A stretch of DNA of 64,000 nt from an uncultured bacterium. Lineage in GTDB: Bacteria > Vulcanimicrobiota > Xenobia > Xenobiales > Xenobiaceae. The translations under genes and the position numbers were made by a program. The stretch covers positions 51,036 through 115,035 of the forward strand of contig CAKUDB010000005.1 in the NCBI GenBank assembly GCA_934644775.1, read 5' to 3'. Of the stretch, positions 30,346-33,807 are shown in pieces (the stretch's first letter is position 1; each line of letters opens with the position of its first letter). The notes under the pieces were generated by a model. That model worked only from the letters and a program-made list of their open reading frames with translations, was not told the DNA's origin and made no database searches.

Positions 30346-33300
30346 ATGAACAGACTCACCTTTACTGCAGCAGCTGTCTCTTTACTTTGCTTAGCTCCTT
30401 TATCGGCAGCTTACTCACAAGAGCCTCAAGTTCATGGCCGACTGTATAATACCTATTCTCAAGCGGTAGCCCAAGCCAATCCTTGGGACAAATACCAAGC
30501 TGAGCCCACCTCTAAGACAAAAAGTTCTGCTCCGAGCGTCACTCCTCAAGCCTCGACTCCTACCGCGAGCGATTCTGGGGCCGCTCCTTGGGACAAGTAT
30601 CCAGCTGAACCTTCAACTACCCCTAAAGCTTCCCCCAAAGCTTCCAATTCGGCCCCTTCTCCCCAAGTTATACCTATTCCGGCTACGGCCGAAGGCAGCC
30701 CTGAAGTAGAAGAAAATTTGCCTGAAGTGACTGGCGACAACCCTTGGGACAAATATGCTCCTGCCCCCTCGCCGGTAAAAGTCAAGAAAAAGAATACCGC
30801 TAAAATTAAAGATCGTCCGACCAAATTAGAGTTAGCCCAACCTCTGCCCGAAATGGAAGTGCCCCAAGGAGCGCGAGTTATCAAAAATAACCTGGCCGTC
30901 GGTACCGACAATTACTTTGCCATTGAATATGCCGGCCAATTGGTAGGCTATTCCCAATATAAGATTAACCGCCTTTTAACCTTAGGCGGCCAATCTACCT
31001 ACGTTATGGATTCTGCCTCACGTATAAAAATGGGCGTAGATAGCGTACAAGATTTAAAGTTTACCGCCAATACCCAAATAGACAAAAAAACTCTGGCTCC
31101 AGCTTTATTCCTCTGTATCCAAGGCGAACATAAGAGCAAAGATGCCTTGAGCGTAAACTGCATATACTCCGAAGATTTTATCGCCCAAAACAATAACTAT
31201 ATGGGTAAAGAGCAAGGCTATTTGCAAAAATACTCCACCGATCAGCCCCCTTTGCTCGTCTTTAACAACTTGTGGGGCCACCTCGATACCTTTCCCGAGC
31301 ACTACTGGCTTATGGTCAGAGCCGCTTCCCAAGGCGGAGTTTTAGAGACCTACGATCCCATCTTGCAAGGCATAGGTAAAACTATTGTCTACAAACCTAT
31401 AAAAGAGAGTTGGAAAGATCGCAACGGAGCTGCACATACAACTTTTGTCTATAAGATTACCGACGCCAACTCAGCCCCTCTGGCCTATGTGCGCCTTTAT
31501 GCCAAAAATTATGAATTGGCTGAAATAAAAGAGATCGGCTCGGGTTTAGTATTCCGCCGTTCTACTCCGGGGGTCGTTTCGGCAGTAGCCAAATCTTCAG
31601 GGCAACGCATTAAAGCCAATTCAGAAATTTCCAATATTTACTTCCAAGATCCCAATAAGCTTACCTATTTGGAAGCTTTTGTCGATTTAAGGCTGCGCGG
31701 TGGAGAATTGGCTCAACACCAAATCAAGAACTATAAACAACAATTCTACGGTGAAGTAAAAGAGGGCCAAATTAAGGGACGCGCCGTAGTCAGCAGCGAC
31801 TTAAAGGGCGAAACTCCCAAAGCCAAGTTTCCTTTCACAGAAAAGGTACCGGAGGAGCTCGAAAAATATTTACAAGCTTGCCCCGGTGTCGAGTTAGAGG
31901 TGAATAGTTTAACTACCAAAGCTAAAGAAGTTACCTGGAAATCGGAGACGGCTTTCCAAGCTGCCCAGCGCTTAAATGGTTACGTATCCAACCAGATAGC
32001 CGAAGGCGTAGCTTTGCCTTCGGCGCGCCAAACTTTGGAAAATCAGGTGGGCAACCCTGAAGGCAAAGCCCTACTTTTAACCGCCTTGCTTAGAGCAGTA
32101 AAGATTCCAGCCCGAGTCGTGGGTGGTCTGTCTTATAATAAGGGCTCATTTACTGTACACCGCTGGACAGAAGCTTGGTTGGGCGCTGAGGACGGCTGGG
32201 TAGCTTTCGATCCCAGCACCAATGAATCGGGCTTTATCAACGCCTCCCATATCACTTTATGGGAGAGCGGCGATCTCCAAGCCATGGATATTTACGTTGA
32301 GAAATTCTCTCCCCGTCCACCTCGCACTACCGACTATTTTAAGACCGCTCTCAAGTGGCCTATAGGTGAAAAGCGCACCTACGGTATCTACCATAAGGGC
32401 AAGCTTATCGGTTTGGAAAGCTCTTACATGTACGATATGGAAGTAGGTGAAGGTGGCGAAACTTACGATTTTAAGTCTGAGTCGGTAATTCTGCGCGACG
32501 AGACGCCCCTAGTCTTTGAAAGTACCCTCAGCATGAACCAAAATGGCCTGCCCATCTCTTTCCAAACTACCGAAGATAATGGCCAGAAAGTCCATCGCGA
32601 GAGCTTTACTTTCCGAGGGAACAACATCAACCAAGCTCTCGATCTTAAAGAGTCGAAGTCTTTACCCAAGCCAGCTAAATCTAAAGCCCTTATAGAGCGC
32701 GAAAAAGCAGAGGCCGAGAAACAAAGTGAAATTCAAGCGGAAGAGACTCAACTGGAGAAGAACCCTCCCCTTCCGGAGTCTGTTCAAGTCGAACCCACTA
32801 ACACGACTGCTCAAGGCGCTTCCCTCGATACGCCACCCCAAGCCCAGAGTCAGCCGCCCCAGACGGAGCCTAGCCTGGAGAAGGCGGCCAACGCTAATAA
32901 AGACATTGAGAAGCCAGAGGCCTCTTCTACTGAGACTGCGCAAGCTGATAAGCTGGGTCAGGGAATTGGTGAGGCTGCTCAAGGAGCTTCTGGAGATGTA
33001 GACAAAGCTGACGATTTGCCCGAAGAAGCAATCTCTAACGCCGAGCAAGAAGCAGCCGAAGCCGAGGCCAAAAAACAAGCTGAGCTTAAGTTGCGTGAGG
33101 AGACTAAAGAGCGCTTGCTCGAAATAAAAGCTTGCTATGACGAAGCTAAAGAGCAAGCTGCCGAAGCCGAAAAGGCCAAGTCTGCTGAAACTAAGTTGGT
33201 AGAAAAAGAGGATATAAATGGCGAATCGACCCAACCTGAAGAAGTTGCCGAGCCTAAAACTCGCCAAATTCCTTACTCTATAGGCACCTATCTTGTCGAT

Positions 33301-33807
33301 CCGCGCTTCTTATCCCAGTGGGCTTTGGTAGTAGAGCAAAGTCCGGTAGTAACTCCTGAAAAAGCTACTCAAGAAGCCCAACCCGATCCGGAGTTACCTA
33401 AAGTCGATCCTAATACTGGAGTAATAGCTTCAAGCGAAGTTATCGCCCCCAACTCAACTTCTACTTCGGAAGTCAAGAGCGACGACTCTGCCTCTAATAG
33501 TCCAGCAGGCGAAACGGGAGCTGGAACTTTTAATTCCAATAGTGCCTCGGAAAATGAAGAAGACGAAGCTTACAGCTTCAAAGCTTTTATTCCCGGATCC
33601 CTTAAAGTACAAGATCTGGCTATTCAGAGGGCCGACGCCGACGAAACGATCACTATGCCCGACGGCAAAGAAGTAGAGACGGCTCGCCTCGATACAGAAA
33701 AAGGTATGCTTTTCTATATGGACTTAAAGACTGGCAAGGTTTTGAAAATAAGTATTCCCAGCCAGGATTTAGAGATGTATTTGGAAGATACGCGCTTTGA
33801 GCTGTAG
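30346..33807 (+). CDS. Large secreted protein: signal peptide, 3x NPWDKY motifs, a transglutaminase-like core with the catalytic Cys replaced, and a C-terminal E/A/K-rich low-complexity region
   Basis: The signal peptide is MNRLTFTAAAVSLLCLAPLSAAYS. The block GKALLLTALLRAVKIPARVVGG...HRWTEAWLGAEDGWVAFDPS matches the Transglut_core pattern GxCxxFA...IPAR...HAW...FDP with Pro in place of Cys. Confidence 0.6.
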   Translation: MNRLTFTAAAVSLLCLAPLSAAYSQEPQVHGRLYNTYSQAVAQANPWDKYQAEPTSKTKSSAPSVTPQASTPTASDSGAAPWDKYPAEPSTTPKASPKASNSAPSPQVIPIPATAEGSPEVEENLPEVTGDNPWDKYAPAPSPVKVKKKNTAKIKDRPTKLELAQPLPEMEVPQGARVIKNNLAVGTDNYFAIEYAGQLVGYSQYKINRLLTLGGQSTYVMDSASRIKMGVDSVQDLKFTANTQIDKKTLAPALFLCIQGEHKSKDALSVNCIYSEDFIAQNNNYMGKEQGYLQKYSTDQPPLLVFNNLWGHLDTFPEHYWLMVRAASQGGVLETYDPILQGIGKTIVYKPIKESWKDRNGAAHTTFVYKITDANSAPLAYVRLYAKNYELAEIKEIGSGLVFRRSTPGVVSAVAKSSGQRIKANSEISNIYFQDPNKLTYLEAFVDLRLRGGELAQHQIKNYKQQFYGEVKEGQIKGRAVVSSDLKGETPKAKFPFTEKVPEELEKYLQACPGVELEVNSLTTKAKEVTWKSETAFQAAQRLNGYVSNQIAEGVALPSARQTLENQVGNPEGKALLLTALLRAVKIPARVVGGLSYNKGSFTVHRWTEAWLGAEDGWVAFDPSTNESGFINASHITLWESGDLQAMDIYVEKFSPRPPRTTDYFKTALKWPIGEKRTYGIYHKGKLIGLESSYMYDMEVGEGGETYDFKSESVILRDETPLVFESTLSMNQNGLPISFQTTEDNGQKVHRESFTFRGNNINQALDLKESKSLPKPAKSKALIEREKAEAEKQSEIQAEETQLEKNPPLPESVQVEPTNTTAQGASLDTPPQAQSQPPQTEPSLEKAANANKDIEKPEASSTETAQADKLGQGIGEAAQGASGDVDKADDLPEEAISNAEQEAAEAEAKKQAELKLREETKERLLEIKACYDEAKEQAAEAEKAKSAETKLVEKEDINGESTQPEEVAEPKTRQIPYSIGTYLVDPRFLSQWALVVEQSPVVTPEKATQEAQPDPELPKVDPNTGVIASSEVIAPNSTSTSEVKSDDSASNSPAGETGAGTFNSNSASENEEDEAYSFKAFIPGSLKVQDLAIQRADADETITMPDGKEVETARLDTEKGMLFYMDLKTGKVLKISIPSQDLEMYLEDTRFEL

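Follow-up and report, generated by a model that had tools for sequence, protein, structure and literature searches.

A transglutaminase-like core without its nucleophilic cysteine, set between two DUF3108-like β-barrels, in a predicted envelope protein of Vulcanimicrobiota

Introduction

A recurring puzzle is posed by pseudoenzymes in which part of the catalytic machinery has been retained. The transglutaminase (TGase) domain of the fungal protein Cyk3p (S. pombe and S. cerevisiae) lacks the catalytic Cys, keeps the His and Asp, and is needed without enzymatic activity (PMC3386208; PMC4758748). A nearby conserved Cys does not substitute for the missing one, and Cyk3p has a role in remodelling of the cell wall and envelope (PMC3386208; PMC4758748). 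Here we analyse a bacterial, predicted exported protein with a Cyk3p-like signature. It is encoded at 30346..33807 (+ strand) of a 64-kb window, the whole stretch of DNA that was analysed (64,000 nucleotides of contig CAKUDB010000005.1, from an uncultured gut bacterium of the Xenobia, phylum Vulcanimicrobiota).

The protein comprises, in order, a signal peptide, a disordered linker, a DUF3108-like barrel, a TGase core without its Cys, and a DUF3108 barrel. We favour, at a probability of roughly 0.6, the reading that the gene product is a Sec-exported, non-catalytic binding protein of the periplasm or envelope.

Results

The nucleophile of the transglutaminase-like core is lost throughout the family

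The open reading frame (ORF) was confirmed in the window and encodes 1,153 residues. Pfam gave one significant family, Transglut_core (PF01841; residues 525–623, E 3e-15, 56.9 bits against a cut-off of 23), and a search of NCBIfam gave zero matches. The core as a whole spans residues 501–660 (31846..32325, +), is homologous to TGase-like proteins, and has the papain/TGase core fold. The only PDB sequence match of the window protein is 3isr, a TGase-like putative cysteine protease. In this alignment G-N-P-E-G-K-A of the window protein faces G-V-C-R-D-F-A of 3isr, placing Pro571 (codon 32056..32058, +; motif G569-N-P-E-G-K-A575) at the position of the nucleophilic Cys. The alignments also identify the triad His605 (codon 32158..32160, +) and Asp622 (codon 32209..32211, +). 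The original prediction, drawn from the window's letters and open reading frames, had described a catalytically dead TGase-like core with Pro in place of the Cys and with His and Asp retained; the TGase-like core, the Pro and the retained His and Asp are borne out.

A homolog search found 92 relatives and one distant match. Position 571 is Pro in 70 of the 92 relatives, Ala in 12, Ser in nine and Gly in one, and never Cys, so that the loss holds family-wide. His605 and Asp622 are kept in all 92, within canonical H-x-W-x-E and W-x-x-F-D-P motifs, and the G-N570-x-E572-[SG]-K574-A motif around position 571 is nearly invariant. Among the 92 homologs no Cys is conserved within residues 501–660. 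The sole Cys of this region in the window protein, Cys512, was considered as a substitute nucleophile and rejected, being Gly in 63 of the 92. A Cys correctly positioned elsewhere in the core is thus not found.

The history of the loss was read from a TGase-region alignment of the best 146 matches of a profile search against 1.84 billion representatives, which returned 9,659 matches at E ≤ 1e-3 and 131 at E ≤ 1e-30. A sister clade (P0098–P0116) has a GN-x-ES[KR]A motif in which x is S, G, R, T, A, Q, I or P, and its counterparts of His605 and Asp622 are nearly invariant. The next group out (proteins of ~700 residues, E 1e-81 and weaker) has a canonical G-[DE]-C-G-[PS]-H motif together with the His and Asp. 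In the sister clade, the members with names carry the labels Xenobia and Armatimonadota; a named Cys-bearing member is labelled Aerophobetes. With a Cys-less sister clade and a Cys-bearing outgroup, it follows that the Cys disappeared a single time, far in the past, and that position 571 then drifted freely; this free drift excludes a nucleophile at that position. The loss is ancient and fixed.

The residues around the vacated position are under constraint specific to the site. Conservation of G554, L557, P558, N570, E572, K574 and A575 is peculiar to the Cys-less clade, and H605, W607, E609, W618, D622, E627 and H635 are common to this clade and the active-looking outgroup. The TGase domain is among the slowest-evolving parts of the protein, slower than the C-terminal barrel. 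This pattern of conservation indicates that the site is not decaying and is instead remodelled under constraint.

The same pattern could also fit a protein that is still an enzyme, in which His605 and Asp622 act with Asn570 and Glu572, possibly with water as the nucleophile, in a thiol-free, non-canonical hydrolysis or transfer reaction in the envelope. The invariance of the His and Asp in the homologs and their near-invariance in the sister clade, the conservation of Asn570, Glu572 and Lys574 in the Cys-less clade only and directly beside the lost Cys, and the slow evolution of the domain relative to the C-terminal barrel all point that way. We nevertheless regard an enzyme as unlikely: neither position 571 nor its neighbours hold a conserved Cys, Ser or Thr (residue 573 of the window protein is Gly), position 571 varies freely among P, A, S, G, R, T, Q and I, and the non-enzymatic Cyk3p likewise keeps its His and Asp. 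No enzyme of the papain/TGase fold is known to dispense with a nucleophilic side chain. It is very improbable that His605 and Asp622, with the clade-specific Asn570, Glu572 and Lys574, make up a novel catalytic centre of the transglutaminase/papain fold that needs no thiol; such a centre might activate water and serve as a hydrolase or amidase for an envelope substrate, perhaps with help from the NNLWGH..EHYW loop described below. The preferred reading, a pseudoenzyme, agrees with the suggestion of the original prediction; the binding role that it also proposed is plausible.

Two DUF3108-like barrels flank the core

An AlphaFold2 (AF2) model built from a 70-sequence alignment has a mean predicted local distance difference test score (pLDDT) of 75 and a predicted template modelling score of 0.69. 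It is confident (pLDDT 80–97) for residues ~160–805, 895–1000 and 1075–1153, and residues 1–153, 808–893 and 1007–1071 are disordered in it. Two DUF3108-like barrels, overlooked in the original prediction, make up over half of the ordered protein. They have the YmcC-like open β-barrel fold. The literature on DUF3108 gives no function, describing only "outer-membrane β-barrel proteins with YmcC fold".

The N-terminal barrel (residues 166–500; 30841..31845, +) aligns with the C-terminal one in hhalign at a probability of 90% (E 1.6e-6), and the N-domain of the sister-clade protein P0098 matches DUF3108 itself (E 5e-6). It holds the most conserved stretch of the whole protein, FNNLWGHLDTFPEHYW (residues 306–321), which exceeds the TGase motifs in conservation. 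This block, F306-NNLWGHLDTFPEHYW-321 (31261..31308, +), lies in an N-domain loop running into the start of a helix. Its mean column identity is 0.85 among distant homologs, and N307, N308, L309, W310, G311, D314, F316, E318, H319, Y320 and W321 are invariant. All of the Cys-less clade keeps the block, which is less strong in the outgroup.

The same barrel contains a family-invariant Cys, Cys272 (codon 31159..31161, +), present in 92 of 92 homologs and still invariant in a 13-member clade in which its possible disulfide partner, Cys257, is Ala. We considered Cys272 as a relocated nucleophile and rejected it. We treat it as a structural feature of the barrel, not a catalytic one, because the sister Cys-less clade has A, T, I, V or L instead and because a similar strand Cys occurs in the barrels of the Cys-bearing outgroup.

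The C-terminal barrel is built from three segments separated by two insertions. Part 1 (residues 661–767; 32326..32646, +) consists of β-strands with pLDDT 90–96, and its counterpart in short homologs matches PF11306 (DUF3108). Part 2 (residues 971–1003; 33256..33354, +) has an occupancy of 0.99 and an identity of 0.75 in distant homologs (pLDDT 93–95). Part 3 (residues 1075–1153 plus the stop codon; 33568..33807, +) is present in all homologs (occupancy 0.95–0.99), with β-strands at pLDDT 91–96. PF11306 matches the C-terminal domains of the homologs P0028, P0050, P0059 and P0037 at E 9e-6 to 3e-8 and has zero matches to the window protein at E ≤ 1; Pfam misses the domain here because the insertions split the barrel.

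Insertion 1 (residues 768–970; 32647..33255, +) is rich in E, A, K and Q and is absent from all homologs of ~800 residues (occupancy 0.00). It is modelled as a helix (780–805), a disordered acidic loop (808–893, pLDDT <50) and a long helix (898–955), the helices at pLDDT 86–94, and the two helices make a hairpin or stalk around the acidic loop. Insertion 2 (residues 1004–1074; 33355..33567, +) is rich in S, T, E and P, disordered (pLDDT <50 for 1007–1071) and missing from most distant homologs. The original prediction had taken the last ~350 residues for an acidic, low-complexity tail. The stretch is instead made up of two lineage-specific insertions and the parts of a β-barrel that they interrupt, and it ends in conserved sequence: 971–1003 and 1075–1153 are ordered (pLDDT ~90) and conserved in every ~800-residue homolog, and 780–805 and 898–955 are helical.

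Other family members carry acidic, A/E/S/T/P-rich low-complexity insertions of 85–190 residues at other places, near residue 720 in P0021–P0034 and near residue 1104 in P0066, P0081 and P0089. Judged from the alignment, acidic insertions appeared separately in different lineages, at three distinct loops of the C-terminal barrel.

Signal peptide and linker motifs

The N-terminus, MNRLTFTAAAVSLLCLAPLSAAYSQ, resembles by inspection a Sec signal peptide (residues 1–24; 30346..30417, +), with a basic n-region, a 17-residue hydrophobic core and an A-x-[AS] site ahead of QE. Homologs keep the pattern, and AF2 gives the segment pLDDT <40. A lipobox was not found in this N-terminus, Cys15 being preceded by S-L-L. 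The repeated linker motif claimed in the original prediction is borne out, and so, by inspection, is the signal peptide.

Residues 25–165 (30418..30840, +) form an S/T/P/A/K-rich linker, judged disordered from AF2 (pLDDT <50 for residues 1–153) and from the identity among relatives. The pentapeptide PWDKY occurs in it three times, starting at residues 46, 81 and 133: within NPWDKY (motif 1, residues 45–50; 30478..30495, +), APWDKY (motif 2, residues 80–85; 30583..30600, +; the Ala is N or S in most relatives) and NPWDKY (motif 3, residues 132–137; 30739..30756, +; followed by a conserved basic stretch and LELAQPLP). The probability of three copies of a 5-mer arising by chance is negligible. 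In a comparison of ten relatives, identity is 94% in the motif columns and 41% (mean pairwise) in the remaining linker.

PWDKY is found nowhere else in the six frames of the 64-kb window, and a six-frame scan of 465 kb of related loci found NPWDKY only in the TGase-like (TG) gene, apart from one chance PPWEKY. The motif was absent from the literature found by search. A word-index search with linker residues 26–160 returned two fragments of the same protein and missed known full-length relatives, which makes it a weak negative. NPWDKY is a short linear motif, so far undescribed, that is under strong selection.

NPWDKY repeats, in three to six copies, occur only in the sub-lineage P0001–P0024, P0029, P0030 and P0034. 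Members lacking them (within P0025–P0092; for example in loci L003–L007, just after position 6001 or 8001) have two different conserved linker motifs, [DE]LPPL[NVK]LP[DP][LMI]P and PPPPLPxPxG. Since members with and without NPWDKY carry linker motifs, the tether always bears short linear motifs, and the gut lineage exchanged one set for another. The window linker has zero Pro-Pro dipeptides, hence no classical x-x-P↓P-x-P sites of Pro-Pro endopeptidases (PPEPs); the linker of the gut lineage has shed all of them.

Distribution of the family

The nearest named homologs belong to Candidatus Bruticola, class Xenobia, phylum Vulcanimicrobiota (formerly Eremiobacterota). A scan of one genome per GTDB species with two peptide patterns, a design that does not prove absence from other groups, found 38 family loci, one per genome. 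Most of these carry the label Vulcanimicrobiota, Eremiobacteraeota, Xenobia or UBP9, and the labels of a few bins are evidently wrong. In this sampling the Cys-less clade lies mainly within Vulcanimicrobiota (Eremiobacterota). The long forms (1,144–1,208 residues), which have both the NPWDKY repeats and the helical hairpin, derive from metagenome-assembled genomes (MAGs) of gut or rumen (sample titles Hadza and goat rumen; Candidatus Bruticola), the named species among them being C. B. papionis. The family is also present in environmental MAGs, where it adjoins trpC in a housekeeping setting.

The sole member of the phylum in culture has an envelope of the usual diderm type (PMC9758169), and a Sec substrate would therefore go by default to the periplasm or outer membrane. 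The related locus L002 also contains a gene (2578–4686, −) with SLH and porin/outer-membrane-protein β-barrel domains (OmpM-like); it suggests that in this lineage the outer membrane may be tethered to the cell wall through SLH domains.

These data bear on the proposal that the protein is a host-directed surface adhesin, in which the NPWDKY repeats, a coiled-coil stalk and the acidic loops would offer the dead TGase domain to ligands of host or dietary origin. The gut or rumen origin of the long NPWDKY/hairpin forms would fit this, as would the independent acidic insertions in three barrel loops, which suggest that the loops are exposed. However, Pfam and NCBIfam detect no adhesin, anchoring or surface-secretion domain, the conserved body is common to the environmental members beside trpC, the envelope is diderm with no sign of translocation across the outer membrane, and the gene is present once per genome, not expanded, unlike typical adhesin families. 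We regard an adhesin as quite unlikely. Of the two roles named in the original prediction, adhesin or scaffold, the second, as a scaffold or binding protein, is the plausible one.

Neighbouring genes

Two types of synteny were found. In type 1 (~17 loci) the order is NadE, an ATLF-like gene, the TG gene and a Ser/Thr kinase gene, then a small ORF and a squalene-hopene cyclase gene; this arrangement persists down to 46% TG identity. In type 2 (23 loci) trpC is followed by the TG gene. A scan for promoters and terminators over 28900–36300 gave nothing above shuffled expectation.

The gene directly 5' of the TG gene (29190..30206, +) encodes an ATLF/M90-like HExxH zinc metallopeptidase. It matches Pfam ATLF (E 2.8e-13) and M90 (E 6.5e-8), and its best PDB sequence matches are PPEP-1 and PPEP-2 (E 4e-4 to 2e-3). 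The zinc-ligand elements HEFAH (HExxH) and AEYFAE are intact and conserved. The protein has a conserved N-terminal region of ~165 residues that includes an acidic stretch; no hydrophobic N-terminal segment or signal peptide was found in the maximal ORF or in 10 orthologs. It is always more conserved than the TG protein (52–96% against 46–86% identity). The pairing of the two genes is conserved in the Xenobia-type lineage, and any functional link between them is hypothetical.

The pairing, the intact zinc ligands, and the precedent of known PPEP substrates, which adjoin the ppep gene and have multiple consecutive linker sites (PMC8610288), would suit a TG protein that is a dedicated substrate of this PPEP-related protease, with NPWDKY as cleavage or recognition sites and the body released from an N-terminal anchor, but this is highly improbable: all 11 orthologs of the protease lack a signal peptide and have a conserved N-terminal region of cytoplasmic appearance, unlike true PPEPs, which are secreted; Pro-Pro does not occur in the window linker; the gene pair is present where NPWDKY is absent (P0032/L003); most of the family (the 23 trpC loci) has no ATLF-like neighbour; and the PPEP similarity is remote (23 bits), the Pfam M90 model (cytoplasmic MtfA) matching too.

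Downstream, a PknB-like Ser/Thr kinase gene (33920–35644, +; kinase domain at residues 25–282) follows the TG gene in many Xenobia-type loci; the kinase has a C-terminal region of ~290 residues without a Pfam match. The trpC-type loci have a Pkinase-FGE-sulfatase gene close by, on the opposite strand. The squalene-hopene cyclase ORF (36155–38395, +; 746 residues) overlaps a 140-residue membrane-protein ORF (35827–36249) by 95 nucleotides. Its L001 ortholog is called at 709 residues, so the true start is probably an internal Met ~37 codons downstream. A family B DNA polymerase gene (window 23716–26064, −; L001 1357–3681; L002 1–1419) is syntenic in the vicinity of this locus in Xenobia-type genomes.

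Two further ORFs of the window were recorded. The ORF at 4789–8580 (+; 1,263 residues), A/Q/T/P-rich with a K/T-rich C-terminus and without a Pfam family, coincides with a GC-rich stretch (54% against ~45%), the only one in the window. The ORF at 59057–61966 (−; 969 residues) is Leu-rich and has no Pfam match at E ≤ 1e-5.

Discussion

A probable non-catalytic envelope protein

We propose that the gene encodes a Sec-exported binding protein of the periplasm or envelope. In an ancestor of the clade the nucleophilic Cys was shed, and Pro571 now caps the helix at the Cys site. The remaining cleft (His605, Asp622, Trp607, Glu609, Trp618 and His635) was retained, and a new conserved motif, L557-P-S-A and G-N570-x-E572-[SG]-K574-A, formed around it. 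Thiol protease or transglutaminase chemistry would be gone, and the former active-site groove may have become a site for binding a ligand or partner, by analogy with the TGase domain of Cyk3p. The two LolA/YmcC-like half-barrels may add further binding surfaces, possibly for hydrophobic ligands, either within the periplasm or on the outer membrane. The tether of gut-associated Xenobia dropped its ancestral motifs, LPPLxLP and PPPPLP, and gained three to six copies of NPWDKY, putative multivalent docking sites for some partner, and loops of the C-terminal barrel gained the helical hairpin and the acidic disordered segments.

Several points weigh against this proposal. The near-invariant His605 and Asp622 and the new invariant Asn570 and Glu572 could fit retained but altered catalysis equally well. 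The localisation is deduced solely from a signal peptide recognised by eye and the envelope type of the phylum. AF2 gives the NPWDKY motifs pLDDT <40 and docks them nowhere. We infer the binding of a ligand or partner by the groove, and the role given to NPWDKY is purely hypothetical.

Current understanding is not overturned by these results, and function is still a matter of inference. The evolutionary series, from an active-looking outgroup through a sister clade with a variable Cys position to the window clade, is usable for resurrection work. Few conserved envelope proteins with one copy per genome have so far been found mainly in Vulcanimicrobiota; the protein is one of them, and it may report envelope biology specific to the group.

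Comparison with known systems

The closest architecture is that of the intact-triad DUF3108/Transglut_core/DUF3108 proteins (P0119, from Candidatus Aerophobetes; P0123; P0157), which have the same layout as the window protein, with detectable homology to it that covers the latter half of the N-domain, the TGase core and the C-terminal barrel (E 1e-81 to 1e-30). They differ in having a G-[DE]-C-G-P-H motif and a stronger Transglut_core match (~90 bits against 57 in the window protein), and they lack a strong NNLWGH..EHYW block, the NPWDKY repeats and the insertions. These proteins are uncharacterised, as is the architecture, which is widespread. The one solved relative, 3isr from Cytophaga hutchinsonii, is a structural-genomics entry, a putative TGase-like cysteine protease whose function is not known; it has the catalytic Cys (GVCRDFA), is a single module of 293 residues, and is 14–16% identical to the window protein. 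Erythrocyte protein 4.2, an inactive TGase-fold protein, lacks both the Cys and the His (PMC3386208). It is cytoplasmic and has the full four-domain build of an animal-type TGase.

The gene pair resembles PPEP-1/CD2831 and PPEP-2/VMSP in that the gene of an ATLF-fold zinc protease stands beside that of an exported protein with motif repeats in a Pro-rich linker (PMC8610288). True PPEPs are secreted proteins of Firmicutes and cleave P↓P-X-P (PMC8610288). In the present pair, by contrast, the protease lacks a signal peptide, Pro-Pro is missing from the linker, and the two genes stay together even where there are no repeats.

Cyk3p is eukaryotic and cytoplasmic, has an SH3 domain, and is homologous to the window protein only at the superfamily level; it lacks DUF3108 barrels, a signal peptide and linker repeats. 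Its TGase domain shares with the window protein an absent Cys, a retained His and Asp, and purifying selection, a likeness of functional class, not of homology family. By this analogy, Cyk3p appears to be the closest functional counterpart of the protein described here.

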